DNA from: Paraspadella gotoi
Lineage: Eukaryota > Animalia > Chaetognatha
NCBI GenBank assembly: GCA_051294375.1
Contig: CM119265.1
Location: 2,827,292 to 2,891,291 of the forward strand
DNA length: 64,000 nucleotides
Direction: 5' to 3'
The notes under the pieces were generated by a model, which ran no database searches, was not told the origin of the DNA, and was given only the letters and a program-made list of their open reading frames with translations. The position numbers and the translations under genes were made by a program. Shown piece by piece: positions 161-64,000 of this stretch; position 1 is the stretch's first letter; each line of letters opens with the position of its first letter.

Positions 161-1420
161 AATCCTCATCGAATTCGCCGAAGCCAATCTTCCTCACAGT
201 CAACTCTCAACTCGCGCGACTCAAACTTTGAGAAGATTTCAAATCGAAGAAACGAGGCGAAGGAAAAACACTCAAAGTATGTTCATTCATTTTATTACTT
301 AAATTATTTAATTTTTTTGTTCATTTATTAATAGTACTTGAAAAATTAAATTTAGTACGTCCAGTTTGTTCATGTAACAAATATCTGTTTCTCTGTTTAA
401 TTGCTGAGACAATTTTAAGTCTTTGTTCTTTTTTTGTCAAGTCTCCATTTGATACTCATTTGCGTAAAATTATTCGTAGAAGCTGTGATATAAAATTACT
501 CTTAAAATTGCATACTTACGACAATTCTTAAGAATTTTCGAAACCAATGAAATAAATCATTAACCTTCATTTCAATAAATAGCGAATAATCGAACTAATT
601 ACAATATTCATTTCTGAGATAGTAAACTTAATTAGTTTTTTAGTAAAGTTATTAACGTGAACAACACCGATATGTTTCCTTTTCGCCGTAGATTCATAAT
701 TCTCCCGCCGCAACCTTTTCTTCATACTTACCTGGCTCAGGGGATTCCTTGATCAACAAGGAGGTTCCCCCGGGGTGAGGCCTTTCCATTGCACTTCGGT
801 TGGGCTGACCCTTGCGATTTCCCCAAATGTGGGAAACTCGGGAGCATAATTTGTGATAGTGGGGTCTGCGTTCGCGCTAACCCCATAACTAATACTGTTA
901 TAGAAAAACTCTTAGCAATGTTCTGCCATTCGCTAAATTACTTGTTTCACTATTTTTAGTTATGGAGTATTTAATTTGGATTTTTCTCGCCATGTGTAAA
1001 TGAGGAATCCAACTCATTGATTTTACTTTATTAATTAATTACTATATTTGTTTATTTGTTTAATCTTGGAAACGCTTGAAATGGATACAACCATTATAGA
1101 ATTATTCATTCATTTAATAAATAAGCAATCTTTTCCCAGACTTAGAACAGGCTGCGTTGAGTTAAGGCTTTACTATCCTAAATCCATCCCTATAAATATG
1201 TTGATCTGATGTTTAACCTAATATTAACCCGTTTAACCTCATCATTACCCAGGTTCGTTAACGGACTCGGGAATCCCCAGCCCCAACAGCGACTGTCCCA
1301 TCACCCCGACGAGTTTCTCGTCCTCTCTTGATGTCACCGATGATTTCTCTCCCGCTACGACTCCCCTCACCCCGACTGGTAAGGTTAATGGGTTAATACA
1401 ATATGGTCAATACCAAATTC

Positions 1421-9600: not shown

Positions 9601-12600
9601 TCTTAAGCAATCTACAAACTAAACAATATTATTTACAAATCTTTAAATAAATAAAATTATTTACGATGTTAGGAACTCGTTTAATGTTGATGAATAGTTT
9701 TTATTGTTTTTTTGGGACTCCATAATTCACTAAGTAGGTCTGTCGTCACTGCCCATTTATTTGTTTTTGGTGATTTATTTTAATTTTTTTTTAAATATCA
9801 AATTATGAATATTTTTTAAAAATTTATGTCTCTCTATCCAGTCTATCAGTATGTCCATCAACAAAAAAGAAAAAAAAAATTAAAAAAAAAAGATAAAAAA
9901 GACAAAAAAAAGAAGACAAATGACTGATTAGCTTTTTACCTAATTTGTATGGCTACGTCCTAACATTGTTGTTAAAACTTGTTTCTTATATTCTTTTAAC
10001 TTGAAATAAAATAAATTGGAGCTTAAAAAATACAAATATTATAATTTTTAGATAAATATGGAATTAAATGAGTTTAACATATAATTTGAAAATTATGTAT
10101 ATTTAATTCAGTTACATAAAACAAAGTCTTTGAAAGAGAGAGAGAAAAAAAGATCTATTAGAGAGAGAAAAAAGATGAAGAGAGAAAAAAAGAAAGAGTG
10201 ATGAGAAAAAGAGAGAGAGAGAAAAAGAGAGAAGAGAAAAAGAAAAAGGGAGAGAGAAGATGAAGAGTAACAGGACAGGGAAAAATATTTCTCAGATATT
10301 TTAATAACATAGTAGAAAGTATATTTTCTCATCTAAACTTTTTGCTCTCTCTTTAAACTCGCCCCTGGCGGGAGCAGTTTTTGCTTCCCCAAGGGGTTAC
10401 CCCCAGGGGCAGACTTTTTTTTGGCCAGGGGCCCTTAGCATTATGGGCGCCCCCTAATAGACCCAAAAATATTGGCCCCAGGGGAACCCCCCTGGGGGGC
10501 CCCCTGAGGCAATCCAGAGGGGGCGCCCCCCTCAATGACCATTTTTGCTGCTCCCCCTGGAATAGTCTGCCCCCTGGGGCGCCCCTCGAGCCGCCCCGCG
10601 GGGCGGAGGATTTGGGGAGATGACTATCTCTCCCTGCAAGCTTTCAATCAAGACTCATCTCACAGTCTTGTTTATTCCACTCCCTGAGTACCTGGCTTCC
10701 CTATCAATGAAAGTGGAAAATGATTTCAAAGAATGTTTCAATTTGCTATGAAAAGACCACTCCCTTAAGTATTAGATCGGGGAATACTTATGTACTCCCA
10801 CTTAGCATCAAAATACAAGAGCTGAATTTATGAAATTGGTACAACCAATATAAAAATTATCCATTCATTCAATAAATAAGCTATCTTGCCCCTGACTTTG
10901 GACAGGCTTTGGTGGTTTAAGGCCTCCATCACTCTTACAAGATAATGACATAGCAGGTCCCTGCAAGCTTTCAATCAATACTTCTCACAGTCTTGTTTAT
11001 TCACTCCCTGAGTACCTGGCTTCCCTATCAATGAAGTGAAAAATTTCAAAGAATGTTTCAATTGTATGAAAAGACCACTCCCTTAAGTATTAGATCGGGA
11101 ATACTTATTGTACTCCGCACTAGCATCAAAATACAAGGAGCTGAATTTTATGAAATTGGTACAACCAATATAAAATTATCCATTCATTCAATAAATAAGC
11201 TATCTTGCCCCTGACTTTGGACAGGCTTTGGTGGTTTAAGGCCTCCATCACTCTTACAAGATAATGACATAGCAGGTCCCTGCAAGCTTTCAATCAAGAC
11301 TCTCTCACAGTCTTGTTTATTCACTCCCTGAGTACCTGGCTTCCCTATCAATGAAGTGGAAAAATATTTCAAAGAATGTTTCAATGTTATGAAAAGACCA
11401 CTCCCTTAAGTATTAGATCGGGGTTAGTTTCTACAGGGAAATTAATTATCTAAATATAACATTATATTGAGGCGACTTACCACCGGTCTTTCTCTCTAAA
11501 CCCTTCCTCTCTCCTCTTTCTCCGACCGGTGGTAAGTCGCCTCAATATAAAGTATATGAGATTTATTTATAAGTTATCTTGCCCCTGAATTTACAAGATA
11601 ATAACAAAGTCGGACACTACAAGCTTCTATTAATCAAGACTCTCTCACAGTCTACTTTATTAAACCCAAGAGCACTTGACCTTCCTATCAATTGATTGAT
11701 ATTTGATATAATTTTTTTTTTCAATTGGATAAAAGGACCACTCACTTATTACCATCTTCCTTCCTTTCTCCTCTTCTTTCTTCTTCCCTTTCCTCCCTCT
11801 CCTTTCCTCCCTTTCCTTTTCTCCCTTTCATTTCCTTCCTTTCATTTCCTTTCCTCCCTTTCCTTTTTCCCTTTCCTTTCCTCTATTTCCTTTCCTCTAT
11901 TTCCATTCCTCTATTTCCCTTCCTCCCTTTCCTCCCTTTACTCTTCTCCCTTTCCTTTCCTCCATTTCCATTCCTCTATTTCCTTTCCTCTATTTCCCTT
12001 TCCTTTCTCCCTTTCATTTCCTCCCTTTTCTTTCTCCCTTTCCTTTCCTCCATTTACTTTCTCCCTTTCCTTTCCTCCCCATCTCACATCCCTCACCCCC
12101 CTCCACTTCCAGAGACGCACAGTCCTCCTTCGACGAGCTCCTCCAACTTTTCTCCGACGAGAATAACGCCGCCATCTTGCGGGAAGTCATGATGCGAGAG
12201 GCGGCGGGGAAGACCGCCGACCCCGGCGCGATGGCGGGAAAAGATGGGCGGGGGAAGAAGTCCTCTCTCATGAGGAGGAGGAGCCAACACTTTGATCAGG
12301 TGGGGAGGGGGAANNNNNNNNNNNNNNNNNNNNNNNNNNNNNNNNNNNNNNNNNNNNNNNNNNNNNNNNNNNNNNNNNNNNNNNNNNNNNNNNNNNNNNN
12401 NNNNNNNNNNNNNNNNNNNNNNNNNNNNNNNNNNNNNNNNNNNNNNNNNNNNNNNNNNNNNNNNNNNNNNNNNNNNNNNNNNNNNNNNNNNNNNNNNNNN
12501 NNNNNNNNNNNNNNNNNNNNNNNNNNNNNNNNNNNNNNNNNNNNNNNNNNNNNNNNNNNNNNNNNNNNNNNNNNNNNNNNNNNNNNNNNNNNNNNNNNNN

Positions 12601-36696: not shown

Positions 36697-39600
36697 TTCT
36701 TCTACCTCTTTTTCCAAATATTTATTAATTTACTTTGAATATATCATTCTTGCTACTGACGATGACATATCTCATAATATACAATATATTATATTATAAC
36801 GCCAATTTTGAGAAAAAAAATTATTTATACATTTTTTTGTCAAAATCGCACAAAGCCTCTCAAGTTAACTTCTTTTGGCCAAGATTTCGCTGTTAAACAA
36901 ACATTAAGCTACAATAAAGTCGCCGACAATACTCTCGTCAATTTTATTCCTTTCCTTACCGGAAAATATCTCAAAGATTTGCCCTGGGATGAAACCAAAT
37001 CGAAACTACCCTGGGACAACTATCCCTTCATTTGGAAAAACTTTTCGGACAGAGGGTAAATACTAAATTGTGGCTGTATATTCACACCGCCTCACGTCCA
37101 GCTCATGGGTAAGAAGGTCTCAAGTTCAAACCCACGTATTCACACCGCCTCACGTCCAGCAGCGTTCAGCCAATCACATTGGCTCTCAGGGGGAACGCAC
37201 CATCCAGGGCGTTGCGTACCATCAACAGTCCTAACGATTTCCTTCTGGGTTGGCAAAGCGAGACCGTCCTAGGGGAACCGCGCCACTGACAGGAGGCGTT
37301 ACTGAGTGTCGGAAGCCCCCAAAGCCATCAGTAAGATGCCCCTTTCCAATGGGCATCACGGGCAACCCGGCTGTTACCATAAGAGCCCCTTTTCTCCTTT
37401 AATTCAGAATTAAAATTATTTTTAAGTTTAGTGATTTGGCTTAGAGATTAGGGTTAAGGATTTGGGTCAAGGGTTAGGGTTTAAAGTTAACAGATAAGGT
37501 TAGAGATCAGCGTTACGACTTAGGGATTCAAATGTATTAGTTTAAGGTATTAGGTCAAGGTCACAAGGTTAGGGGGCTGAGGGATTTTAAAAAATCAGGC
37601 TTAGATAATGAAAATAAAATTAAGTTGAGGCATTAAGAACAGAAATAGGGCACTTTTGGAAAATAGTGGCCAAAAATTCTCATTAACTTTTTTGTATTAT
37701 TTTTGTATTAAGTCAGCACTTGATAATAATTCCATTAGGTACTGGACTCTGTATGGTGAAGATTATTTCAGTATCAGTACCTTCAACTACATAAAGGAGG
37801 GTTTTCACCGGCAGCCCACAGACACTATTTTCGACCATTTTTACTGGCCTATGATAAATATCATAAATTAGAGTAAGTTCAACTCTGAGAATTATCTTAA
37901 TTTAATTCTCCGAAATTCATTTTCAAAATTGATTTTCTCCTTTGAATTGTAGTGGCGTATCGGCACCAAATGTTTTGGAAATCAAACTCAGGTTTGTTTT
38001 ATTTTTTTGATTTTTAGTGATGTAATATCACTACCCGTTGGATACCACTATTCCTTCCGTCAGCGTCCTAATAGCGCGCTTGTTTAACGCTTCATCTCCG
38101 AACCCAATGGGCATGGGTTCTAGCCCTGGTTGAACAGTCCTTGCAAAAAGAGTGACGGGCCGGTTAAACCACCGGTAGCAAACCTACATGGCAACTGACG
38201 GAAAAAGCTACCAGACCCACTCGGCACACTAAGTATGAGGCTATCCACAGTCACAGACAGGCATGGCGACCCTCTCTCCTCTTGGTCACTAAAATAATTG
38301 GTTTGAATTACTTCATAACATTCTTGTATACCTATTACCTAATAATTCATGTATAATAACTGGCAAGTTAAAGGGGTAGCAAGGATTTTCTGAAGAGCAC
38401 TTAATTATATTTAAGTAAGTGATGTAAAAGTATGTGACTAAAAAGTATTACCTTTAAATGATGCAGTACGTATTACCAGACTCGTGAGCATTTCCAAATC
38501 TAAATTGGACCGACCGATCAAAAGTAGACTAATCGGGTTCGTCCTCCAGTGAGTACTCAACAATTTTCCCTCGAAGGGCGATTGGCTCTACGATTGGTTC
38601 TTCAACGTCCTTCGATCTCGCGACGTCAGCGATCGAACTTTTGCTTTACTTTGGTCCAACTCTTGGTCGCATGAGGAGCTCCACGCGACCAGAGCAGCGG
38701 ACGAGCCCACGCTCCGACTGTTTAAGAGATTGAACGAGGGTGAGGGGGAATATTAGGAGCAATTGGGAGGATCTATTAATAAATAAATACTTAAAATAAT
38801 GAGTGAATGAATGAATTTATACATGATTGAATTAATGAATAAAAGAAAAAGGAATGAATGAATGAATTTTTAATTAAATAAATTATTCATTGATTAATCA
38901 ATAAATATATAGATGAATAAATGAATTATTTAATGAATGATTCATTGAATATATATTGAATATAAAAGTGAATTACAAAATGAATGAACTGAATAATTGA
39001 AGAAAATTTTTTTGACTCAATCAGTGAAATAATTAATTATGATGAAGATGATGATTGAGTGAAATACTGTATAACTAAACGAATCAACGAATCTCAATCT
39101 AATCAATAAAATCAATCAATCAATCAAACCAATCAAACCAATCAATCAATCAAATCTCCAAGCCAATCTTCTCTCCAACGCCATCGTCTTCTTCTTCTCT
39201 GACCACGGATTCCGATTCGGCGAAATCAGAGAAACTTTTGCCGGAAAATTCGAGGAGCGACTTCCCTTCCTCTACGTCCTTTTGCCGGAGAGGCTGCGGC
39301 GAAGTCGTCCCGAGTTGGTCGCCAATCTAGAGACGAACTCCCGTCGATTGACGACGAATTTCGATCTTTACGAGACGATGGTTCATCTCTTGGATATGGG
39401 AACTGGAAAGAAGAGAGGGTGAGGGATGAAATGGACAAAATTTGATTGATTGATTGGATTGATTGGATTTATTGATTGATTGATTTCTCTCTCCAGGTCA
39501 GAGTCCAATCCTCCTTTAGTCAATGGAACCAAATTTCGTTATTCCCTCTTCGATGAAATTCCAACGACAAGATCTTGTGCCTCAGCGACCATCAAGCGCC

Positions 39601-41436
39601 ATTGGTGCACTTGTCAGACAATGAGGAAGGTCGTTGTGGAGAGCAAGATGGCAATTGACGTCGGCAACTTTATAATTGAGCGGGTGATTTTACTTCGACT
39701 TTACCAAATTTGAAATTGTATTGAAAGTTTTTAAAATGAACATGCAATATAATCATAATTTGTTTTATTTTTAAGCAATACAAAAACGTTTTTAAAAAAA
39801 GAAGCTATGTCCTGCTATATTATTATATTGTGAAAGGGATGGAGGCCTTAAGCCACCATAGCCTGTCCAAAGACTGGAGGCAAAATAACTTATTTTCTGA
39901 ATGAATGGATAATTTTTATATTGATTGTACGAATTTCATGAAGCGTAATTTCTATATTTTTTTTATATTTTAGATAAACGAGGTTTTAAAACATCGACGA
40001 AATATTTGTCAGTTTCTGACTTTGAAGAAAATAAAAAGCGCCTTCATTACAGAATCTCCCGATTATTATCTCAAGGTAAAGTAGAAGTAACTGTTGAAGA
40101 TGGTTTGTATTGATAAAGTTGTAATCCGTATCTGAACGAGTTTTAAGAAAAGAACTGTTGAAAACCGTATCTGATCTAGAAAGAATTAACTAAAATTGAC
40201 CAAAATTGATTACATATATGTATATATATATATATCTTCGATTCTGTCGTTCTGTTCGTCGCCTTGACTTAACTTTGTCTTTCTGCTATATAACAATCTT
40301 CACTCAATTAACCAATTAACCAATTAACCAATTAACCAATTAACCAATAAACCTTTGCAGTGGCGACAAGAGGGGGGGACACCCTCGCCTCAGGCGAGGG
40401 GCCCGGGCCCCAGGGAGGGCCGCTGAGAAGAGAGAAAAAAAGAAAGAAAGAAAAGAAGAAGAAAAAAAAAGGAATTGAGTGATTATGAAAAAAGGTTCAG
40501 TCTGTGCAGATAGTTTAACTGATCAAATTCAACTTAGATCATGCCTGGGCCCCTTTAGACTTTAGGGGTCAAGTTGGTAATGTCCCAACTATTTAATGGG
40601 GGTAATGGCCCTGTGGCCCTGTGGCCCCGTGGCCCTTTGGCCCTTTGGCCCTTTGGCCCTTTGGCCCTTTGGCCCTTTGGACCCGTCCATAGTCCCTAAT
40701 TTTCAAGCCAGAAAGTCAGTAATCGAAAAATAAAAAATAAAACTATGGAGAGCTGGGGGGGACCCGGCCGTGGGACCAGTGGAGGGGCCCGCCATTTTTC
40801 TCGCAGCCCCTGAACCTTTGTCATTCAGTTCAGAGCTCTCTTCAACGACGTCCTCAACCAACAGCTCGAGTTCCAACCTCCCGTCAGATCCGCCAACAAT
40901 TTTGTCGTCGTCGTCGAAGCTTCTCCCGGAGGCGGAGTCTTTGAAGGTGTTGTTGTTGTTGTTGTTGTTATTGTTTCGTTATTTATTTTAATGTTTTTGG
41001 TTTTTTATTCGTTTCATTTTTGACGTTTTTGATTTTCTTGTTCTATTAAAAGTTGTTCTTGTGTTTTTAATGTTGTTTGTTGTCTCTGTGGTTGTTTTTG
41101 TTGTGGTTTTGTTGTTATTGTTTATATTTTGTTGTTGTTTTGGTTGTTTTTGTTGCTGTTGCTTTTGCTGTTGTTGAGGAACTCTTTTCATTTGTCTCGT
41201 CTGTGTAACGATTTGCTCAAATAAAAATGTCCTATCACACTATCACACTGTGTTACTGTGTTTCTTTTTCCTCCTCAGGCACTGTGCGCGTGTGGGAAGC
41301 GAAGGGAAACCATAAAGGGTCGATGTCGTTGGAAGGAGAAATAAGCAGAATCAATTTATATGGACAAACGTCTCATTGCGTCGAGGAGGCGAGACTCAAA
41401 AAATATTGTTATTGCAAAAATGATGCGGGAGATTAA
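35169..41436 (+). CDS. DUF229 family protein (alkaline phosphatase/sulfatase-like fold, N-terminal TM), paralogue 1
   Basis: ~14 exons: MSRLFNK-TM, GCKIPSFDPFD, VFLVGIDSVSKNNFIR|NLPKT, YNKVADNT, TLYGED, FFSDHGFRFGEIRETFAGKFEERLPF, RLTTNFDLYET, SLFDEIPTTRSC..HWCTC, ISRINLYG..HCV..LKKYCYC*. One apparent 1-bp frameshift near 37822. Confidence 0.9.
38016..38290 (+). mobile_element. Repeat family C: hairpin, tRNA-like head and partial twister core (P4 deleted)
   Basis: Homologous to 58574-58871; B-box-like GGTTCTAGCC; AGT-GA-CGG-GCCGGT-TAA-ACC at 38151-38170. Confidence 0.75.
39823..39940 (+). repeat. Family A fragment with degenerate twister core (39835-39877)
   Basis: GA-TGG-AGGCCT-TAA-GCC-AC-CATAG-CCTG-TCCAAAGA-CTGG followed by the family A tail. 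Confidence 0.75.
40358..40812. mobile_element. hAT-type MITE with 8-bp TSD
   Basis: TSD AACCTTTG at 40350-40357 and 40813-40820; termini CAGTGGCG.../...GCCCCTG; internal GGCCCTTT tandem. Confidence 0.8.
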
Positions 41437-41563
41437 ATAAAGAAAATTTGGAGTCTTCGGCATTTTTAATTCATGAGGATAAGCTAAAGATTAAGGTGTT
41501 GTCGGTACATTGAAAAGTTATCAGTGATCACTGATAGGCCATCGATTATTATATTGATACTAC

Positions 41564-41760
41564 GGTGGACTAAAATCCACCAACCGTTCATCAGCGGCAG
41601 GAGGCGAGTCATTCGCTTCCCAACCAAAAGGTCCGGGGTTCTAGCCCGGTGGCTGCCTAACACGCCTGTAACACGATGTTACAGCCTTGTCCAAAGCTCA
41701 GGGACTGCTTAATAAGCAGTGCTTATATTGAACGGTTCTGTCACTAACTCATAACAATTA
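41564..41760 (+). mobile_element. Repeat family B: tRNA-like head with twister 3' half
   Basis: GGTGGACTAAAATCCACC hairpin, TCGCTTCCCAA..GGGGTTCTAGCCCGG, then TAA-CAC-GC-CTGTAACA/TGTTACAG-CCTTG-TCCAAAGC-TCAGG. Confidence 0.75.
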
Positions 41761-44539
41761 TTTCTCGAAAAAACCATAATTACTTTATATATATAGGTAA
41801 GTTAAACTATATCCTACATATACATTCATCCAATAAGCTATCTTACACCTTACTTTAGACAGGCTAGGGAGGGTTAAAATGATAAAATAGCGGGACTCTG
41901 CAAGCTTTCAATCAAGACTCTCTCACATTCTCATTTAAAAATACCAGAGCTATTGTCTTCTCTATCAATGAAATGGTAAAATAGATTTACTAACTGTTTC
42001 AATTGTAAGAAAAGAAATATAAAATAAAGACAAAAAAGAAAACTACCTTTCTTCAGTGGATTAGATACTAGAACTTTTTTCTTAAGAGTGTCGAGAAATT
42101 TCCATGGCAACTGATAGAAAAGTGATATTGAGACACGATAACATGAGTAATTTGGTTTTGAACGAGGACCTGATCGCGCATTAGATACATAAGCGGTGTA
42201 AAAATTTCGAAAGCGACTAGTAGAGACGAGGAGCGACGAGGAGCGAAAACATGCGCAATTTCTGCGGACCAGCTCCGTTAAATAATAAATTTCATGATGA
42301 AACCATGAAAACTACGCCTTTGTTCCCCAAGATTTGGAAAGTTCAGACACTGAACTATCCAGATGTCAAATAATAATGGTCAGTTAACGTTGTCTTCAAG
42401 TGCAAATTAATGCCTCCACTAAAAGTTGATTTTGGACTTTTTAAATTAGCCGATGAAATTTAAATGCTAATGTATACAGCGTTAAAATAATCTATCATGA
42501 CCATAGATTATGGTATTAAAATATTTTTTGTCAAAAATGCTTTCTTCTGAGGGTACTCGCCTAATTAAAAATATTATATTACTATATAGAGCAAAAATAT
42601 TTTTTTTAAATCTTAAAATTTTTTGATGGATTCTGATAGAGCATAAAAAGTTAAACAAGAAATATAATTACAGCTTTTAAAAATTATTACGTTTTCTAAG
42701 TGAAAATATAAAAAAAACTGATAAAATCATCGAAAGATGATGATGATGATGATTTTTTACAGTTTTTTTTTTTTTTGACACACTTATCATAAAAATATTT
42801 AAAAAAGAATCATACTTTGTGTAGACAACTTTTTATGAGTTATCTGAATCTGGTCTTAAAATTTAAAAATTCCAAACAAAATTTTTGGCCTTTCCTATCT
42901 ATAAATAAATATTAAAAAATTAATTACTAGGGTATAGAGCCATATTAGAAATTTTTTGTCCATTGAAAGTATTCTTAAAAATGTCTAAATATTCGTTTGA
43001 GCATGTACTCACTCTAAATTTTTGACTCACCCCATTGAGTGCGGCTACCTCATTATCTCATTAAATTTAATGAGATAATTTTAATAAGCTAAAGAGTTTA
43101 GCCGCTTGGCAAGACACTAAACTAATTATATGTTTTGTGATAAGTTATCTTTTTAGCACCAGCATTATACAAGGGATAGTTAAACTTGATGTAAATTCTT
43201 AAATGTAGTATTATGTTTTACTGGCTTTGTTTCATATCAAATCACCATATCTTATCACCTTTACCGATTTTATTTGTTCCCGCAAAGGAAGATACCAGGG
43301 ACGTTAGAGGTTCAAATACTAATAACACTTTTTAATTTATTTGTTGGGATCAGGTGCAAATATTGTAAAATATAGCAATGAACGGACATTTTCGAGTAGA
43401 GGACCAGTTTTAAAATGCATTAGAAATGAGTTCAACGATTGTCTTAGAGTAGGAAACTTGTAATAGGTTTAAAAATATTACTTATTATTTACAGTAAAAT
43501 ACAAAAAAAAGACAAATCATAGGAAAACCGCTCGCGGAGTAATCGTTTTAAATAGCTTTAAATACTACTAAACTATTTATGGATTTATGTTTTTCCACCG
43601 ATTTTAGATACTAAAATCCATGTACTATCAAAAACCATTCGTAGTTGGCAAGTATTTAAAGCGCTATTTGTGCAACTTTCGTAATGAACCAAAAAAAGCA
43701 GAAAAAAATTTTGATCGCTAGAATTTTTTTTCTTCGCGAAGCGACATATATATCTACCCAAAAGTCTAAACGTTTATTCTCGGTGACTGACGTGGCAAAT
43801 ATGTGACAAATGTAATAAATATTTCATCTTAAATAATTTTGAAATTTCAAATGTCAAATTTCTAATCAATATTTTTACACGATCAATTCTTTGAAGTCCA
43901 ATATTCATGATTACTTATGGGTTTTTTTTTTCTCTCTCTGTGTCTCTCTGTCTGTCTCTGATCTTTTATTCTACCAAATTTACAATTATTTTATAATAAA
44001 AAAAAATTGTCTTGAAAACAATTTAGTTTTTTCTTCACCCCTTCAAAATCGCAGTTAAAAAAAATTTTACTTAGTAAATGATTCTTATCGAAGTGTTAGA
44101 AAAAAAAATAATTTGAAAATCATTTTGGCATTTACTCATTTTGTGGATCCTGAACACATCAAGTGCGTTATAATATCAATGAGAATGGTAGTGATTCCCT
44201 ATGATTCCCTGTATATTCTAAGCTAGTTTTCAAAAACTCAGATAGAGTAAAACCTTTTTAGAACAAATTTGTATTTAATCCATACTAGGTATCTGGGTAT
44301 CCCGTTGTTTATCAAGATTTAAAAAAAAAGTAAATTCATCTTAAACTACCTGGAATATAGCTTGACAAAGTGAGCCTGAAATAGAGAAAAGCCTTATATC
44401 TCTTAAAGAAATGATTTTTGACAACTGATATTGCTTGAGAGGTTTCCGATGATAGTCACTAATTAATTAAAAGCATATATATTTTTGTACGATGAACTAA
44501 CCTTATTCCAATAAAAAAAAATATTTCGATGATAGTGAA

Positions 44540-47500
44540 ATGCAGCAACGACTATTGTGCAAAAACCGCTTCTTCATCTTCTTCGTCGTCGTCGTCGTCG
44601 CTTTCGTCTTTGGAAGTTTTTATTCGGGGTTTTTGCGCTTTGAAAATTTTGGATTCAATTCGTGGGAAGCCTCGTTTCCGATTCATTCCGTCAATTTCTC
44701 TGGTAAACAAAAACAAAAGATCAAATAATTTTATCAACGTGATTATAAAGATTCACAGATATTCATAATTCATGTTTTACAGAGATTCATAAATCCTCAT
44801 TCACAGAGTCTCATGATAACTCAGTCACATTCGGAAACGAGGCGAAGGAAGGATTCGACGTCTTCACACCCGGATGTAAAATTCCCACCGTTGATCCCTT
44901 CGATCCATCGCTCAGTCACATCAAATTGAAGGGTGAGATCAATTACGAATAGAAAACACGTATGAAATTGACCTTGCAGTAAAGACAGGATATATTGGCA
45001 ACTATATTTGGGCACCCTGACCCTTCATTAGTGTGCCCAGTTGGTCTGAAGCTTCGGAACTGGTTGTTTAATCATAACCGTCAGTCAAATGAATACACAG
45101 TTCCGTCCAGGGGCAAAACCCGCGACAAATGGGTACAAGAGATGAAGCGTTAGCTCTATGGAGTTATGACAAGATGAAAATTAACGCGGCAAAACTGTCC
45201 CACGTAAATTCTTATCGTATTTCACAATCTCAACTACTACAGCGCGGCAGAACTGGAGAGTGATGTGAAAATGATAAAATTTTAGAAAATTAAAATTTAG
45301 CATATAAAACATGAAAATAAAAACCAATAAAAATACTTTAGTAAGTTTATTTTTTAATTTTATTCATTAGTGGCACCCAGTGAGCTATATTTATATATAG
45401 TAATAAGTATATTATAAGCTAAAATTTTAAAATGTAAATTTTTAAATTTTAAGATCGGATTTGGATTTCTTGCTAAAAGTTAATACAAGAAATTCTTTTT
45501 TTAATTTTTTCATTAAGTTGGTTAAAAATGTAAAAAAATGTATTTAAGATGCAGATTTTCAATTTTAAGCTTAAAAATATAGTTTTTTATAATTTTAACC
45601 TACCAACTTTTATCAACTTTTATCAACTTTTAACGAGGAAACTGAATCTGTTCTCAGAATTTTAAAAAAAACATTTTAAAGTTTTGACATTATATAAGGT
45701 ATATACAAAATTAGCTGACTGGGCTACTATATTTGTAAAAAATATATATATTTCCAGATTAGTATTCACTAATATGATAGTTTTCAAGATATATTTGCTA
45801 AATTTTGATTCCAAACTTTCACTTCACCCTGCTGGAGAGTTTTATTCTACGAGTTATAATATTTTGATGTTAATTTAAATTTATTAAACTCCAGGGGAAA
45901 AAAAGACAAACGAATGCAGCAAAACTCGACGATTTCTTGTGAAGAATTTAAAAGAAAATTCGATTCGTTTGAACGAAAAGGAAAAAGGAGAAAAACTAAG
46001 AATTAAATCTTGTGAAATCAAAACTGTGAAGCGGCGAAACGATCGGACGGAATGGACGGACGCGCGGACATTTCGTGCGGACGCCTGCGTAAGTCAAGAG
46101 AATTAATTTAATAAACTAAATATGTAAACTTATAATCCACTGGTCAAATCAAATTTTAATATGTATCCGGATTTTATTTTAATAAAATTTTATTTAGAGT
46201 AAATAATTTTTGAAAAACTTAATTGATTTTTCAATTTGTCTTCACCAAAGGTCAACATCTCCGGCGACTTTTCACTGATCATTTGTTTCGACAAGATCGT
46301 CGAGCCCGCTTCCAAGAATTCGTCGTCGCGGCTTTAGATGATAAAACAAAAGACAAAAGAGACCAAAGACTCTGGATTCGACGTTTTGCTCATCGGCGTC
46401 GATTCTGTATCGAGAAATAATTTTGTTAGAAATTTCCCGAAGACTCGAAAATTCCTCTTCGATAATTTGGAACCCGTGGAATATTTTGGGTAATTTAGAC
46501 TTGAAATAAAGGTTCGAACTTCATACCAAATAGTACAAGATAGAGTTCAGGTCTACCTGCTTGCAAATCCTAACGCATTGGAAGCATTCTTTACCATTTT
46601 ATATCGCTTATGGAAATAACGTCAATTGAAATTTAGCTATGGTTAAAATCCGAAATTTGTATCCAGTTACTTTCCATATTTGTACTATTCTATAAATGGT
46701 ATGTATTTACAATTTAGAGTACCTCTTCTTAATTTTCAAGGTACAACAAAGTTGCCGACAATACCCTGGTTAATGTTATTCCATTTCTCACTGGAAAATA
46801 TCTTGAAGACTTGCCCTGGACAGAAAAAATGGCTCATTTGCCTTTTGATATATATCCTTTCATTTGGAAAAATTTTTCAGATAAGGGGTAAGTTAATGCA
46901 GTGTATTCGAAGAATTAGAATTAAAACTTTATGGTTATATTGTTAGAAAATAAGTTACGCATGTATATTTTTTTTTGTATGTAAAAACTGTTTTAATCCA
47001 GATACCGCACTTTCTACGGAGAAGACTCTCACAGCATTAATACCTTCAACTACCAAAAAGCTGGATTTCATTCTCAACCAACTGATTATTACTTCCGTCC
47101 ATTTATATTGGCTTATGAGGAATTAGAAAAGAAAATGGGCCTAAGGTACATAGTTATGTGGTTTTTTCCATAGTTTCCTAAAACTGATATGATTAAGCTT
47201 TTTTTTCCCAACCTTTTTAGAAATAGATATACTTTCTTGTCTTGCCAATACTGAAAAGTTCAGCAATTTTTAGATATATCGAGTTTACAATATACTAAAG
47301 CAGCTTTTGAATATGTATTAATGATATATATTGAGCATCTTCTAATAATATGTATAATAATATTAAAATAATTATATTAATAAAATTTTCAGCCAAGAAT
47401 CTCGAACGAATGCTTTGGATATCAAACTCAGGTAAAAGATCACGTTCTATTATAAAATTAATTTATACACACTGCACAGTAGGGTGGAGTGATGAAAAGA

Positions 47501-49899
47501 TTGAGCGATGTAACATGTTTTTTTGCTGCCTTGGTATATGTAATAAAAAATAATTAATCCTTTTTTTCAAAAAAATTTGGTTTAACCGTATTATGAATGA
47601 ATTTTCTTTATAGTAATTTATTGTAATTTATTGTATTTATTTATTTTTTGTAATATCCTTATAAACATCATATTTTTTAATTTTAAGAACAGTTTCGGAT
47701 TCGCCGCGAAAAAACTTAAATATAAGTTAAATATGTTACATGATATTTTTAGGTTAAAGCTGCGAAAAATGACCAAAACGTTTAATCATATAGTAGTTTT
47801 TACTACAGAGCATGAAAAAGTGGAAAACTTGGCCTTTTTTTTTCCATTTTTGACGCTGACGACATTGAAATTTAATAACATATTATGGTTGACTAAAATC
47901 CACAACGCTTCATCAGCGGCCATTGGTGCCGGAGGCAAGTCATTCGCCTCCCAACCCAAAGGTCCGGGGTTCTAGCCCGGTTGTGGCCTCGCTGTTAAGA
48001 GGGATGGGGCGCTTAACCCGCCTGATCCAAAGCTTTAGGGACTGCTTATATTGAACGTTCTGTCACTAATTCATAACAATAATTATTGTCTCTTCATTGG
48101 TGAGCCGACTTCCAAACATAACAGCAACAACAACACTTTCAGGCGACATGCCTCAACCTGGCGATGCACTTTACGCCAACAACACATCAGTCGACATGAC
48201 TTGGTGACAAACTTTCCACCAACAACAATTAACAGAAGAGACAAAACAGACTTTTCCCAACGGGGGGGGGGATGTATGGTGGACTAAAATCCACCAACCG
48301 TTCATCAGCGGCCATTTGTGCCGGAGGGCAAGTCATTCGCCTCCCAACCCAAAGGTCTGGGGTTCTCGCTGCGGACGGGGCGCTTAACCCGCCTGTAACA
48401 CGGTGTTACAGCCTGATCCGAAGCTCAGGGACTGTTTATATTGAACGGTTCTGCACTAACTCATAACAATAATTACTGTCTCTTCAAGGCTAATAATAGA
48501 TTAATATTTATATATCTCTCAAAATCCGCAGGGCGAATGGCTGTACGACTATTTTCTCGAGTTTCTTCGAACTCACAAAAACGAAAAGAAATTCGCTTTC
48601 GTTGACGAACTCTTGGTCGCACGATAAAGTCTACGACGCCGCTTTGGCCGATGAGCCGACGGAAAAACTCTTTCACAGATTGAAACAGGGTCAGTTGTTG
48701 GAGAAACTGCGAATACTGGTCGCATACTACGTATTTTGAATCGTACAACTTATACATTTTGCAACTCTATCATTTGATAAAATATATTTTTTAAGAAAGT
48801 TTGTCGAATTTTTCTAAGACTTAAATTTTTTGTTAAGAATTACTTTTAATTTTAAAACGGATTTTACCTTAGAACCTACGTGGACTGAATTTAGTCATTG
48901 CTCAGTTTTAAATTCTTTTTTAAATCAGGCGGCTTCTTAGAAAATTCCATTGTGATTTTCTTCTCTGATCACGGCTTCAGATTTGGTCAAATCAGAGAAA
49001 CTTTCGTGGGAAAATTCGAAGAGCGTCTTCCTTTCCTTTTCTTTCTCGCGCCCAAAAGATTCAAGAAAGATCATAGAGGGCGTTACGAGAATTTGAAGAA
49101 AAATGCACGAAGACTGACAACCAATTTTGACATTTATCAAACTCTGGTGGATCTTTTGGATTTAGGGTCTATGAAAGAGACGAGGTACGTAGTATGAATG
49201 GTCAATATATAATTATATATTTTATATATTTTTTGATTTTTTAGAGTATTTTGCCAGCTTTTTTTGTTCATTTTCTTTCATTTTTGTGATATAATAGAAG
49301 ATTCAACTAATCAAAAATTTTTGTATGAAAGAATGATACAACCCTATTTAAATTTTTTTTTCGAAATAATTTACGCTTTTAAAATGAGTCAAAAGTAGTT
49401 TTTGTCAAACATATGAGGTAATATTTTTTTAAAGTATATGTTATAAAATAACGTTAAAGATTTAAAATGCTAAAATTTTTCTTACTTATACTATTATAAA
49501 ATTCTTGTATGATTTTTCGTATAAAGAGGCAAGGAAAACTCTCCTTTTGTCAACGGAATCCAATACCGCTATTCGCTCCTTGATGAAGTTCCTCCAGAAA
49601 GAAATTGTGAATCGGCAACGATCAAACCTCATTGGTGCGTCTGTCAATCTATGAAACGAGTCGATGTTAAAGATAAAGATGTCACTAAAGCTGGACAATT
49701 CATCGTTCAACAGGTTTTGGATATTTTATTTATTGGATAAAGAATAGTTGGTGTGCTAGAAAAACTAAGATGTGATTTTATTCATCTGTGATGATATTTT
49801 TTTCCGCTCAATAGAGAAGTGCAGAAATAATTGTAAAGTTTTAAAACTGACCACTTATTCACTTTTGTTGCAACTTTTTCGCCTCTTTAGTTTAATTAA

Positions 49900-54863: not shown

Positions 54864-55292
54864 TCATCGATATGCACGACGAGGCGATCTCGAGCGGTAG
54901 CGTTCGTAGGATCGCGACCGGGAGCGCGACCTTCTCCTTGGCGGCGGCGAGTAGCGTCGATAGTCGTCACGACCGTCCCGTCCGTCCCGGCCGTCCCGTC
55001 CATCGCGCCCGTTGTCCCTCGGTCGACCACGCCCACCACGTCCGCCGCCGTGCGAGATTTCGACGCGAACTCTGCTGGAACCGATGCGCGTCCCGTCTAA
55101 TTGTCGACAGGCGTCGCCGGCGTCGCGAGGATCTTCGAACTCGACGAAGGCGAAGCCGGGTGGATTCTTCGCCACCCAAACTGACTTTAAGGCGCCGACT
55201 TTGGAGAAGGGCTCGCGAATTTCGCCCTCTGTGGCCCGGGGATCTAGGTCACCCACGTAGACCTTGGCTTCGTTGAAGGGGCGACGGGACAT
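54864..55292 (-). CDS. SR splicing factor, SRSF3/SRSF7 (Rbp1/9G8)-like, single coding exon
   Basis: [46 protein letters not shown] followed by RD/RS repeats; no zinc knuckle; ATATAAA on the minus strand at ~55363-55369. Confidence 0.92.
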
Positions 55293-56351
55293 CGCCAGGG
55301 TTTTGGAGGGGCTGCGCCGGTGGAGGAAGATGAAGACTAAGTCCGAAGGAAATTGGGCTTCGTTTATATCTTTCCTGGAGAGAAAATTTAATAGAGCAAC
55401 ACTTTAATAACAAGATACATTATTCAAAAATTGAGAGGTATTGCGAAAAAAGTAAATATCAATATGGTATTACGGTCTTGATTAAAATAAAGAATTATTC
55501 AGGGTAAACGCTAGCGACCAGCTTCCCTCTTTTAAAATTCGTCTGCTTCATCGATTTTCTTTTTTTCAAAATTCAATTTCCGTTTCTTCGTCTCTTTTGT
55601 TTTCTCCTAACGGAATTCTATAGAATCAAATTGAACAGAAAAAAAAACAAAGAAGCAACAGGTTAATAACTTTCTCAAGCCTTGAGTCAAGGACGAGGTT
55701 ATAAAGAAATTTTAAGGCGATTATATTGTAGTTATGTAATAACTCCGCTGACCAGTTTTTAAACTTTTTTTTTTCATATAGCGTATCTCACTTTGAAATT
55801 TCCCTAAGATTTCGTTTTAAATTACTTAAAATTCTTTTTCGTCGAGTAATTCAGTTGGACAACAAGAGTTCTTTGTCTTCAACTTGAAGTTCAAGCAAGC
55901 AAATACAAGCAATGACGATTATTTAAATGCTTCCCTCCTCCAAAGTTTAAAAAAAAAGTTCTTTATAAAATTTAAATTAAAAAAAACAACAACTAATAAG
56001 GCCTGTCCTTGTGCCTCGAAACGTGTGGCTTAATTTTTTTTTTTTTTTTTTTTCACGGATTTCAAACAAAAATGTCATTGTGATCATCTTGGTCTTCATG
56101 AAAGTCTATCAGCGAAAATCAATGCCAACAACGCACTGCCTTAAAAATAATACTGCATTATTTTAGTTCATAGTTGATACAATTGGTGTAATTTATGTTT
56201 CGTACTTGTTGTGGACTCGTAATCTAACCAAAATCAATGCGGCTCAGATCATCGAAATTCCTATTTCTCGTTTACTTTTAACTACAATTTTTTTTTAAAT
56301 CTTTCTTCAAAATTTCAGGCTCGCTTCTCCCCCCCCCCCCATCAACTGATA

Positions 56352-58323
56352 ATGTCTTCCCCTCCCGCCCGACTCTTTCCCGGAGTCGGCCTCCTTCTCG
56401 CATTCGTGGACGTTACCTGCATCACTTACGGCGAACTCTTGGTCGTAGTGACGCCGCGGTTGTCGGCGCTCACTTTCGCCTGGATCGACGCCGCCGCTTT
56501 CGCCGTCTTCCTCGTTCCAGTCTTCGCATTCGGACGCCGGAATCCGTTGGCGCCAAAGCGGCGCGATTTGGCGCTTTTATTCTTCAACGGTGAGTTTAGA
56601 GTAATGAAAATTCTATATTTTGATCGAATTACATACATATTTATTAAATGAATGGATAGTATTTTGATGCTGGGCGGAGTACAATTTAGTATTCCCCGAT
56701 CTAATACTTAAGATAGTGGTCTTTTCATACAATTAAAATATTCTTTCAAACATTATACTACTCCCTGATAGGGAGGCCAAGAACCTGCTATGTACCTCTG
56801 TCGTTATCTTGTAAGAGTGATGGAGGCCTTAAACCACCAAAGCCTGTCCAAAGTCAGGGGCAAGATAGCTTATTTATCAAATGAATGGATAATTTTTATA
56901 TTGTTTGTACCAATTTCATACAATTCTCACAGTTAGAGGTAGCGAGAGAAAGAGAGAGAGGGAGAGAGAAAGAGAGAAAGCCGAGAGGAAACAAAGGGAG
57001 AAGGGGTCGTCTAGAGGTTGTCTTCTCCTAACCAGCGTGGGTAATATTCGTCCCCACGACCCACGACCCACTAATCTAAACAAACGTCACTTCAAACTCC
57101 AGGTTCCAGCGAAGTATTTTGTCACGTGTTCGCGATTGCGTCTGTGCAATTAGCGCCTCTCGGTGACGTCGTGGCATTGTGGAGCGCGGCCATCGTGATG
57201 GTGCCCTTGGTCGAGTGCCTCGTGGATCTGCGGGGCCAATGCGAGGATCCTCGGGACCAACGCTTGAATAGACGTTGCCAATGCGACGACGCCCTTCGTC
57301 TTGCCTTCGTCGTTTTAGCCGTCGTCGGCGTCGTCGTCGTTTCGTCGTCGTTTCGTCTTCGGAGACGCCAAGACGATCGACCTCGGGCGACGCCTGGTGG
57401 GTTACGCCTACGCCATCGGCAACGCCATCGCCGCCACGCTCAGCTATGTCATGGTGGCCCAGTTGAGTCACGTGCAATTGGGCAGTCGTGGATGTTTACT
57501 TCGTTCCCGCCGCGGTCTTGGTGAGAAATTTGGTTCACTTTGTAAATTGTAAAGTTTAAATGTTTTATATTTTTTTATATATCAAAGCCAATTTAGCAGC
57601 GGTACCCAGCTGAAGACTCTTTGCCCATCCATTGGCTAATAGTCTAATCTCTATAATTGCCTCTCTCTCACTCTTTCTCATTAATTCTTTCTCACTGTGA
57701 CTCTCTCTTTTCCTCAGTTATTGTTAAAAACGCTCATTTACACCCCGAGGTCGTGGTCCTTATAATATTCTCCTTTCAAAAACAGAAAATTTCCTGTCTG
57801 TCATGAAATATTTTATTAACTGGCATTGCGGTTAATAATATCGGTTTGAAGAGACAGTAATTATTATTATGTGTTAGTGACAGAACCTTTGTTTGTCGGT
57901 TAAATGGTAAATACGTCGTCCTAATCTAATTCATCATAATAAGTTTATAACCCACTCCTGCCTCTTTTGACCTACTTCTTCCGCCTCTCCCCCGCCGCAT
58001 CCGCCGCTGCAGCGCCGCTTCCCCGCGATTACTTAGCAGCCGCCGTCTCCGGTCTCCTCGACGTCATCGGATGCTCCTTCGGCGTTCTCTCCCAACAGAT
58101 CGTCAGCGCCTCCACCGTGACGCTCATCGGGTCTTTGGAGATCCCCTTGGGCTACTTGCTGGACTTTGTCTTCACTGGAGAGACGCCTTCGTGGAGCACG
58201 TTGGGCGGAGCAGGGCTCATCGCTGTCTCTGTTGTCGGGTCGTCGATAGTTGAAATCGTTAAAGAGAAGGAGGAAGAGGATCATTTAGAATTAGAAAAAA
58301 AGAAATTGTTGAATCAAATCTAA
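56352..58323 (+). CDS. EamA/DMT transporter, SLC35G-like
   Basis: Hydrophobic exons 56352-56589, 57103-57520 (ASVQLAPLGDVVAL) and ~57960/58013-58323 (SASTVTLIGSLEIPLGYLLDFVFTGETPSWSTLGGAGLI); apparent 1-bp insertions in exon 2. Confidence 0.75.
56638..56922 (+). repeat. Family A dispersed copy containing an intact putative twister (56803-56869)
   Basis: 43-nt core identical to 10891-10933; P5 extends to 10 bp (56803-56812/56860-56869); other parts of the monomer are deleted or diverged. Confidence 0.8.
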
Positions 58324-58573: not shown

Positions 58574-58871
58574 AGTGATGTAATATCACTACCCGTTGGA
58601 TACGACTGTTCCTGCCATCAGCGCCGTAGTCACGCACTGGGATAACGCTTCATCTCTGAACCCACTGGTCACGGGTTCTAGCCTTGGTTGGAACAGTCCT
58701 TGCAAAAAAAAAAGTGAGGGGCGGGTTAAACCACCAGTAGCAAGCCTACCGCGGAATCCAAAGTTCCAGAAAGCAAAGCAACTGTCGGAAAAATCTCCCA
58801 GACCCACTGAGCGCACTAAGATTGGCTGTTATCCACACTCGCAGAGAGGGATGGCGACCCTCTCGGTCACT
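58574..58871 (+). mobile_element. Repeat family C: hairpin, tRNA-like head and twister-like core (58694-58784); diverged reverse piece at ~45010-45160
   Basis: AGTGATGTAATATCACT hairpin; GGGTTCTAGCC; AGT-GA-GGG-GCGGGT-TAA-ACC-AC-[GTAG/CTAC P3]-GGAA-TCCAAAGT-TCC. Confidence 0.72.
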
Positions 58872-61904: not shown

Positions 61905-64000
61905 ATGATGCAAGTGAAAATGATGCAAGTTGAAAAAAATGATGCAAGTTTAAAAACGTATGCAAGTTTAAAAACGTATGCAAGTTGAAACGTATGCAAG
62001 TTGAAAAAAGTATGCAAGTGAAAAGATTTTGCAAGTTGAAAAGATTTTGCAAGTTGAAAAGATTTTGCAAGTGAAAGATTTGCAAGTTGAAAAGATTTTG
62101 CAAGTGAAAAAGATTTTGCCAAGTGAAAAAGATTTTGCAAGTTGAAAAGATTTTGCAAGTTGAAAAGATTTTGCAAGTTGAAAAGATTTTGCAAGTTGAA
62201 AGATTTTGCAAGTTGAAAAGATTTGCAAGTTGAAAAGATTTGCAAGTATGAAAAGATTTTGCAATTTGAAAAGATTTGCAAGTTGAAAAGATTTTGCAAG
62301 TTGAAAAGATTTTGCAAAGATTTGCAAGAAAGATTTTTGCAAGTGAAAAGATTTTGCAAGTTGAAAAGATTTGCAAGTTGAAAGAATTTTGCAAGTTGAA
62401 AAGATTTGCAGTTGAAAAAGATTTTGCAAGTTGTAAAAGATTTTGCCAAGTTGAAAAAGATTTGCAAGTTGAAAAGATTTTGCAAGTTGAAAAGATTTTG
62501 CAAGTGAAAAGATTTTGCAAGTTGAAAAGGATTTTGCAAGTTGAAAGATTTTGCAAGTGAAAGATTTTGCAAGTGAAAAGATTTTGCAAGTTGAAAAGAT
62601 TTTGCAAGTTGAAAAGATTTTGCAAGTTGAAAAGATTTTGCAAGTTGAAAAAGATTTGGCAAGTTGAAAAGATTTTTGCAAGTTGAAAAGATTTTGCAAG
62701 TTGAAAAGATTTTGCAAGTTGAAAAGATTTTGCAAGTGAAAAGATTTTGCAAGTGAAAAGATTTGCAAGTTGAAAAGATTTTGCAAGTTGGAAAAGATTT
62801 TGCAAGTTGAAAAGATTTTGCAGTTGAAAAGATTTTGCAAGTGAAAAGATTTTGCAAGTTGAAAAGATTTTGCAGTTGGAAAAGATTTTGCAAGTTGAAA
62901 AGATTTTGCAAGTTGAAAGATTTTGCCAAGTGAAAGAGATTTTGCAAGTTGAAAGATTTTGCAAGTGAAAAGATTTTGCAAGTTGAAAAGATTTTGCAAG
63001 TTGAAAAAGATTTTTGCAAGTGAAAGATTTGCAAGTTGAAAAGATTTTGCAATTGAAATATATTTTGCCAAGTTGAAAAGATTTGCAAGTTGAAAAGATT
63101 TTCAAGTGAAAAGATTTGCAAGTGAAAAGATTTTGAAGTTGAAAAAGATTTTGCCAAGTTGAAAGATTTTGCAAGTTGACAAATATTTTGCAAGTTGAAA
63201 AGATTTGCAAGTTGAAAAGATTTTGCAAGTTGAAATAGATTTTGCAAAAGTTGAAGATTTTGCAGTTGAAAAGATTTTGGCAAGTGAAAAATTTTTGCAA
63301 GTTGAAAAGATTTTGCAAGTTGAAAAGATTTGGCAAGTTGAAAAGATTTTTGCAGTTGAAAAGATTTGCAAGTTGAAAAGATTTTGCAAGTTGAAAAGAT
63401 TTTGCAAGTTGAAAAGATTTTGCAATTGAAAAGATTTGTGAGATGCAGTTAAAAGATTTGCAAGTTGAAAGAATTTTGCAAGTTGAAAAGATTGCAAGTT
63501 GAAAAGATTTTGCAAGTTGAAAAATTTTGCAAGTTGAAAAGATTTTGCCAAGTTGAAAAGATTTGCAAGTTGAAAAGATTTTGCAAGTTGAAAAGATTTT
63601 GCAAGTTGAAAAAGATTTTGCAAGTTGAAAAGATTTTGCAAGTTGAAAAATTTTTGCAAGTGAAAAAGAATTTTTGCAAGTTAAAAGATTTTGCAAGTTG
63701 AAAGATTTGCAAGTTGAAAGATTTTGCAGTTGAAAAGATTTTGCAAGTTGAAAAGATTTTGCAAGCTTGAAAAGATTTGCAAGTTGAAAAGATTTTGCAA
63801 GTTGAAAAGATTTTGCAAGTGAAAAGATTTTGCAAGTGAAAAGATTTTGCAAGTTGAAAGATTTTGCAAGTTGAAAAGATTTTGCAAGTTGGAAAAGATT
63901 TTGCAAGTTGAAAAATTTTGCAAGTGAAAGATTTTGCAAGTTGAAAAGATTTTGCAAGCTGAAAAGATTTTGCAAGCTGAAAAGATTTTGCAAGCTGAAA
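61905..64000. repeat. 18-bp tandem satellite (GCAAGTTGAAAAGATTTT)n running off the window
   Basis: About 2.1 kb of units with homopolymer-length noise; diverged units at the left edge. Confidence 0.97.

Follow-up and report, generated by a model that had tools for sequence, protein, structure and literature searches.

The window, by which we mean the whole 64-kb stretch of DNA that was analysed, consists of AT-rich (24–45% GC per 2 kb) and microsatellite-rich eukaryotic DNA. It contains a U1 snRNA gene at positions 724–886 (plus strand) and an SR-protein-like gene with an RRM at 54864–55403 (minus strand), and an 18-bp satellite of about 117 copies with a strong G skew occupies positions 61908–64000. 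Between positions 15100 and 35500, the sequence contains a direct duplication of about 7 kb as well as a large inverted duplication whose centre is near 28.9 kb; they are either real or an assembly artefact. The homopolymer noise and the large inverted duplications suggest that the assembly is noisy. The host gene of interest here probably encodes an EamA-family transporter: the Pfam EamA model matches its last exon only (29.7 bits), and a protein search gave one EamA relative. Exon 2 of this gene (57103–57521) appears frameshifted, which is probably due to an assembly error. Three short repeat families, named A, B and C, carry a putative ribozyme motif, one copy of which is located in sense orientation in the putative first intron of the EamA gene. 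The features relevant to this motif are the following:

56590–57102, plus strand: putative first intron (GTGAGT...CTCCAG) of the EamA-family transporter gene, based on its GT-AG ends and frame continuity
56659–56926, plus strand: dispersed family A repeat copy, intronic and in sense orientation (blastn against the tandem array)
56803–56869, plus strand: intact core of a family A type-P5 twister, a candidate ribozyme (Rfam Twister-P5, descriptor and structure parse)
56803–56812 and 56860–56869, plus strand: 5' and 3' arms of P5 in this core
56816–56818, 56819–56820 and 56821–56823, plus strand: P2', GA and T1' (TGG)
56824–56829, plus strand: self-complementary hexamer AGGCCT at the place of the P1 hairpin (descriptor, energies and covariation)
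56830–56832, plus strand: UAA, with the predicted cut between 56830 and 56831
56833–56835, 56836–56837 and 56838–56842, plus strand: P2, T2 (AC) and a C-AAA-G stretch replacing P3
56843–56846 and 56855–56858, plus strand: the two arms of P4, with L4 TCCAAAGT at 56847–56854
10631–11422, minus strand: family A tandem array with a period of 319 bp, 2.5 copies and two intact ribozyme motifs
39835–39891, plus strand: diverged family A ribozyme motif that retains AGGCCT (39843–39848), with damaged T2 and P4
8145–8271, minus strand: family A copy (at 8248) with homopolymer-noisy sequence, whose linker reads AGGCCCT
1077–1190, minus strand: old family A copy (near 1170) with a decayed core and the linker AAGCCT
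47884–48096, plus strand: family B element with a tRNA-like head, the B-box-like word GGGTTCTAGCCC (47967) and a ribozyme motif with GGCGCT (48008–48013) and a deleted P3
48275–48486, plus strand: family B element whose ribozyme motif has GGCGCT (48379–48384), a P3 hairpin, a P4 of 5 bp, L4 TCCGAAGC and a deletion upstream of P2'
41557–41765, plus strand: family B element (near 41.65 kb) in which a deletion has removed P2', GA, T1' and the hexamer
38016–38290, plus strand: family C element with a tRNA-like head, GCCGGT (38159–38164) and deleted P4 and L4
58574–58870, plus strand: family C element, probably a decayed copy, with GCGGGT (58721–58726); the majority letters of run X1 restore P4 and L4
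45040–45152, minus strand: decayed relative D, with a family C-like head, a twister-like core and a 7-nt non-palindromic linker (45071–45077)

A preliminary description of this DNA had listed five hexamers (AGGCCT at 56824, GGCGCT at 48008 and 48379, GCCGGT at 38159 and GCGGGT at 58721), and all five are present there, exactly between GA-NGG, which includes T1', and TAA. The pattern GANGG-N6-TAA-NCC-RCC is found at eight places in the window, compared with a mean of 0.00 in 100 dinucleotide shuffles. Four of these belong to family A (AGGCCT), two to family B (GGCGCT) and two to family C (GCCGGT and GCGGGT). The three matches beyond the five hexamers listed before all contain AGGCCT, one at 39843 and two on the minus strand, at 10920–10925 and 11239–11244. 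With G-U pairs allowed, seven of the eight hexamers are self-complementary, the exception being GCGGGT; among all 4096 possible hexamers this holds for 5.3%, and for 1.6% if only Watson-Crick pairs are counted. A strict descriptor of the whole core was passed by only four copies (family A at 56819, 10930 and 11249, and family B at 48374), and gave 0–2 matches in each of 20 block-shuffled windows. Most ribozyme copies in the window are damaged. The earlier claim that the hexamer is palindromic in every family is borne out for A, B and C and fails for relative D, which has its GA at 45082 on the minus strand and the linker TTATGAT, and whose decayed core has a mismatch in T2 and is without a P4. 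Relative D does not match the pattern, and neither do the noisy and the old family A copies or the family B copy that has lost its hexamer.

The three repeat families differ in their organization. Family A is present in tandem with its 319-bp period and as dispersed copies with a common 3' end. It is very abundant in run X1, of which 1307 contigs align to one family A unit, and is partly tandem; the tandem junction is contained in one X1 contig, and most family A copies in X1 appear to be single and 5'-truncated. Loose ends of X1 contigs accumulate downstream of the predicted cut, at a distance of about 90 nt (10827–10830), and the depth declines toward the 5' side without a step at the cut site. 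Among the 1307 contigs, no variants at a frequency of at least 2% were found at the hexamer, GA, UAA or L4; this uniformity would be expected of a young family in any case, and X1 may be DNA.

In families B and C, the ends of the element are defined. The word GGGTTCTAGCCC, which resembles the B box of Pol III promoters, is present in four B and C copies, against 0.06 expected by chance, and the head of family B can form a partial cloverleaf. An upstream A box was not detected in the B and C heads by regular expressions, nor were tRNAs detected in these heads by ARAGORN or Rfam. The B-box-like word suggests that the B and C heads may be tRNA-derived, which ARAGORN and Rfam do not confirm. Copies of family B start with a hairpin GGTGGA...TCCACC (47884–47915, 48275–48305 and 41557–41590), and those of family C with a hairpin AGTGAT...ATCACT (38016–38032 and 58574–58590); family C ends with GGTCACT, possibly forming a short terminal inverted repeat. 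When 32 contigs of run X1 were aligned to the family C copy at 58.7 kb, their majority letters restored a P4 of 5 bp and an L4 that reads TCCGAAGT. A loose end of four contigs reads GCCGGT with an agreement of 0.74, and a contig of low depth may read ATCGGT. Since P4 and T1 are restored by the majority letters and GCCGGT is present in the loose end, the copy with the exceptional hexamer GCGGGT is most likely a decayed one. The carriers of the motif are likely short non-autonomous retroelements; as neither a reverse transcriptase nor an endonuclease motif was detected in the 64-kb window, we infer that they are mobilised non-autonomously.

Judged by its letters and predicted structure, the motif is a variant of the type-P5 twister ribozyme (RF02684, clan CL00120), whose P1 hairpin is cut down to a loop-less 6-nt palindrome. 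It shares with this class the order P2'-GA-T1'-P1-UAA-P2-T2-(P3)-P4-L4-P4-P5, the termini in P5, the T1 and T2 pseudoknots, and the conserved GA, UAA and L4 (UCCNAAGY). The Rfam Twister-P5 model matches positions 56816–56858 with 25.8 bits (E 0.013), which is under its gathering cut-off of 37.6, and this alignment places zero nucleotides on the 14 inner P1 positions. The Rfam scan of the family B copies and of the family C copy at 38 kb gave no twister match. One difference concerns P1, which in the model is a hairpin of at least 3 bp plus 14 further positions. Here, the 6 nt do not make an intramolecular hairpin, and the predicted probability of pairing in cis is 0.0001 in family A. Another difference concerns P2, which has only three positions, including an A-C apposition. 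Hammerheads were not detected in the Rfam scans of the window and the repeat copies. Opposite the family B twister, a CTGATGA half-core on the minus strand (47900–47920 and 48295–48312) was considered as a hammerhead and rejected, the following GAAA being absent in the copies examined.

A metagenome scan was performed with the core pattern taken from the window, leaving the linker free in content and, between 4 and 14 nt, in length. The 16 of 64 parts covered yielded 120 loci, one of which, L036, passed the structure filter. Its linker, CAATTG, is a perfect palindrome of a fourth type, its P2 has 3 nt and its P5 6 bp, and the Rfam Twister-P5 model gives it 24.2 bits, also below the gathering cut-off. 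L036 has a terminal repeat with a period of 974 bp and is therefore circular or tandem. It has no long ORF, and a second twister L4 was detected on neither strand. Based on these characteristics, we regard L036 as a candidate retrozyme-like or viroid-like RNA.

Applied to at least 581 loci, the structure filter passed 25 parses: L036, 16 clear P5 twisters, two alternative parses of those, three back-to-back copies and three weak ones. The 16 clear P5-type twisters are located at 13 viral loci and all have P1 hairpins of 15–25 nt; a short-linker P5 twister was found neither among at least 455 viral loci nor among six prokaryote loci. At loci L294, L307, L314, L362 and L363, phages carry P5-type twisters whose P2 has 3 bp, often two of them at one locus. 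The phage P5 twisters thus also have a P2 of 3 nt, but a fully paired one, and L362 and L363 even have the T1, T2 and P2 letters of family A and a perfect 3-bp P2, yet long P1 hairpins. Several other candidates were rejected. L226, L275 and L302 contain the 6-nt non-palindromic linker GAACGT; according to Rfam, L226 consists of two phage type-P1 twisters placed back to back, about 50 nt apart (279–378), and L275 and L302 have the same stretch. L256, with the linker CAGTTG, seems to be arranged in the same way and did not pass the P2 filter. For L294 and L307, the short parses are alternative readings of motifs with long hairpins, and the parses of L263, L298 and L550 are weak and were set aside.

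Seven cores, including that of L036, were aligned. GA and UAA, which are catalytic positions, are invariant in all seven, and the conserved L4 is present in A, B and the family C copy at 58.7 kb and deleted in the one at 38 kb. T1 is TGG/CCA in family A, in one B copy and in L036, and CGG/CCG in the other B copy; in family C it has CGG in the 38-kb copy, and CCG is the majority reading of run X1. T2 is AC/GT in A and C, and GC/GC in B and L036. Both T1 and T2 are fully Watson-Crick in four window copies and in L036, with compensatory forms between families. P4 has 4–6 bp, and P5 10 bp in family A. P2 consists of 2 bp and an A-C mismatch at the third pair in six of the seven copies.

The hexamer itself also covaries. 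Counted on a gap-free alignment of the seven cores, 20 of the 21 cells pair, and two-sided changes are observed in all three pairs. The central pair, formed by adjacent bases, is CG in three copies, GC in two, AU in one and another combination in one. It is Watson-Crick in all four hexamer types, which has a probability of 0.4% if the types are independent and is weaker evidence given the shared ancestry of A, B and C. Controls with the register slid gave at most 0.15, compared with 0.70 for the true hexamer register; the shuffle control overstates the significance of the covariation, since there are only four independent hexamer types, three of which come from one genome and share ancestry. 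Because its two bases are adjacent, the central pair cannot form within one strand, but it could form between two.

The classic kissing-loop design has a palindrome of 6 nt within a loop flanked by purines, as in the HIV-1 DIS. In line with this design, and with the tandems formed by family A, the palindrome might provide an RNA-RNA contact for another purpose, such as bringing templates together for reverse transcription or tandem formation, or might act as a site at the DNA level, cleavage being independent of it in either case. We consider this highly improbable, because in all four types the palindrome is located exactly at the place of P1, in register with T1' and UAA, and because four different palindromes argue against a site recognized by a protein.

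The alternative we favour is that the hexamer forms P1 between two copies. The nearest-neighbour energies of the four hexamer duplexes are -9.1, -8.3, -8.9 and -3.0 kcal/mol (-8.3 to -9.1 for the window hexamers), against +4.1 to +6.0 kcal/mol for a hairpin of 1 bp (+5.6 to +6.0 for those of the window). CAAUUG makes a weak duplex, and that of GCGGGU has -1.4 kcal/mol. According to folding models, which ignore pseudoknots, the hexamers pair with each other in isolated homodimers with probabilities of 0.99–1.0 for family A and 0.94 for L036, whereas the in-cis probability for L036 is 0.07. For isolated family A RNA, the strand-swapped twister-like dimer is predicted to lie 13 kcal/mol lower than two twister-like monomers, and the dimer ensemble to lie below two monomer ensembles by about 8.6 kcal/mol for family A, 7.4 for L036 and 4.4 for a long-P1 control. 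The intermolecular 6-bp P1 that the preliminary description had proposed is thus supported, at the level of prediction, by the covariation, the fourth palindrome in L036, the duplex energies and the swapped family A dimer. In the homodimer of the family B copy at 48275–48486, which has the upstream deletion, the predicted hexamer pairing is 0.0.

The same models give the family A monomer a minimum free energy structure that is an alternative fold (-18.6 kcal/mol, against -12.3 for the twister-like secondary structure). This competing fold, together with the short mismatched P2, might abolish cleavage in any form, in which case the motifs would be inactive relics, and the scores below the Rfam cut-off and the damage to most copies in the window would fit such a history. 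Relics of this kind would not be expected to keep GA and UAA invariant in seven out of seven cores or to show covariation of T1, T2 and P4 between families, and imperfections in P2 are reported to be tolerated in tested twisters (PMC11662667). We therefore judge inactivity very unlikely.

We propose that two copies of the motif fold as a strand-swapped double twister that shares a 6-bp P1 and cuts much better than a single copy, a reading to which we assign a probability of roughly 0.58. In such a dimer, formed in tandem or in trans, the UAA-P2-P4-L4 half of each copy would join the P2'-GA-T1' half of the other. Both halves would meet around one shared P1, with P2 and P5 being swapped as well, resulting in a nested rod-like fold. 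Cleavage would be favoured in tandem or concentrated transcripts, yielding unit-length RNA fit for ligation. A lone copy, be it on a circle, a linear template or as an intronic passenger, would be slow to cut, since P1 is impossible in cis and P2 has only 2 bp and an A-C apposition.

The likely benefit would be that the element's own monomeric template is protected. The preliminary description had instead suggested that restricting cleavage to multimers spares host pre-mRNAs. The single intronic copy in sense orientation (within 56590–57102) fits that suggestion; however, it is a single case, and protection of the template, as has been proposed for double hammerheads, would explain the design at least as well. 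For the tandem family A and for L036, cleavage in multimers and not in monomeric circles is a more direct fit than host sparing, and sparing of host transcripts may be a side benefit.

How strictly cleavage would depend on the dimer is less clear, since P1 is reported to be dispensable in the twisters tested, which weakens the claim that cleavage is restricted to multimers. According to a review, twisters without P1 cleave at a near wild-type rate (PMC5408937), and PMC6154101 likewise reports P1 to be dispensable. For about 2,600 natural candidates, cleavage is described as unaffected by the length, stability and imperfections of P1 (PMC11662667). PMC8501958, on the other hand, calls P1-less cleavage inefficient and ties activity to P1, and also reports activity for Schistosoma T-variants whose P1 is altered. 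The dispensability of P1, its tolerance of defects (PMC5408937, PMC11662667) and these active T-variants would allow another reading, namely that the motif is a mini-twister active as a monomer. The hexamer would then be a flexible linker or a relic of a hairpin that lost its loop, the palindromes a by-product, and single copies would cut themselves. A 6-nt linker could span the gap within a monomer, and a stem that loses its loop would presumably leave a palindrome by itself. Moreover, the native 319-nt tandem is predicted not to swap: its hexamers pair with each other with a probability of just 0.023 (ViennaRNA), as local folds win. What makes this reading unlikely in our opinion, though much less so than the two set aside above, is that the linker has a fixed length of 6 nt and that, across the four types, the two bases of its central adjacent pair change together. 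In six of seven copies, P2 is weakened by an A-C, as opposed to the perfect 3-bp P2 of L362 and L363 with their long P1. Also, an intact copy in sense orientation persists in an intron. The strand-swapped double twister remains our preferred reading.

Among known systems, several retroelements carry self-cleaving motifs. The twister variants of Perere-3/RTE elements lie at the 5' end, where according to PMC8501958 the target DNA supplies one P1 strand; here, we see a P5-permuted motif in an internal position, which in family A is separated from the fixed 3' end by about 90 nt. The SINE-like elements of Schistosoma, reported to combine a promoter with a hammerhead (PMC6765202), are similar in that a self-cleaving-type motif is present in a retroelement, in B and C downstream of a tRNA-like head. 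Naiad Penelope-like elements also resemble the present case: they are retroelements of invertebrates, have partial tandems and reportedly are without canonical hammerheads (PMC8557442). They are a candidate mobiliser; no reverse transcriptase or endonuclease motif was detected in the window, and the link to Naiad is a lead only. Motif searches of Naiad consensus sequences gave no exact match to the twister core; a loose twister-like stretch is visible by eye in a few. Animal retrozymes have a size range that, as described in PMC7229834, includes the 319-bp period of family A. Family A resembles retrozymes in being a non-coding tandem repeat of 150–450 bp with low GC and a ribozyme motif, and departs from them in that its ribozyme is twister-like and not a type I hammerhead.

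At the level of titles and abstract openings, our search gave no natural dimer-dependent twister; most of the subscription literature and the primary mini-twister literature lay outside this search, and an earlier description is possible. The word "twister" does not occur in the available text of a 2026 retrozyme preprint.

Besides the type-P5 twister, the closest parallel is provided by the double hammerheads of newt and axolotl satellites, non-LTR retrozymes and Penelope-like elements. A palindromic helix III is reported to make hammerheads act as dimers (PMC4209133, PMC6765202), and such palindromic double hammerheads occur in retrozymes and Penelope-like elements (PMC6765202, PMC7229834, PMC7761336); they have been proposed to cleave in multimers and not in monomeric circles (PMC4209133). 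Like the motif described here, they have a short palindromic helix that is impossible in cis (PMC4209133, PMC7229834, PMC6765202), are organised in tandem units of about 300 nt and belong to a genome of low GC. The ribozyme class is different, however: the hammerhead core requires helix III, whereas P1 of the twister is reported to be dispensable, which makes strict dimer dependence less certain for the twister. It is possible, although we would sooner bet against it, that the motifs represent a widespread class of obligate double twisters, which converged with the hammerhead on a palindrome switch confining cleavage to the multimeric transcripts of retroelements and circular RNAs, and which may include the missing ribozyme of the hammerhead-less Naiad. 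If the dimer mechanism itself holds, P1, deemed dispensable, would play a regulatory role. There would be retrozyme-like and SINE-like elements that bear twisters and escape Rfam due to scores below the cut-off, and a compact ribozyme that is controlled by its copy number or concentration would be at hand. Hammerheads are the only ribozymes in which natural cleavage is known to depend on a dimer; a double twister would mean that two unrelated ribozyme folds share one copy-counting switch.
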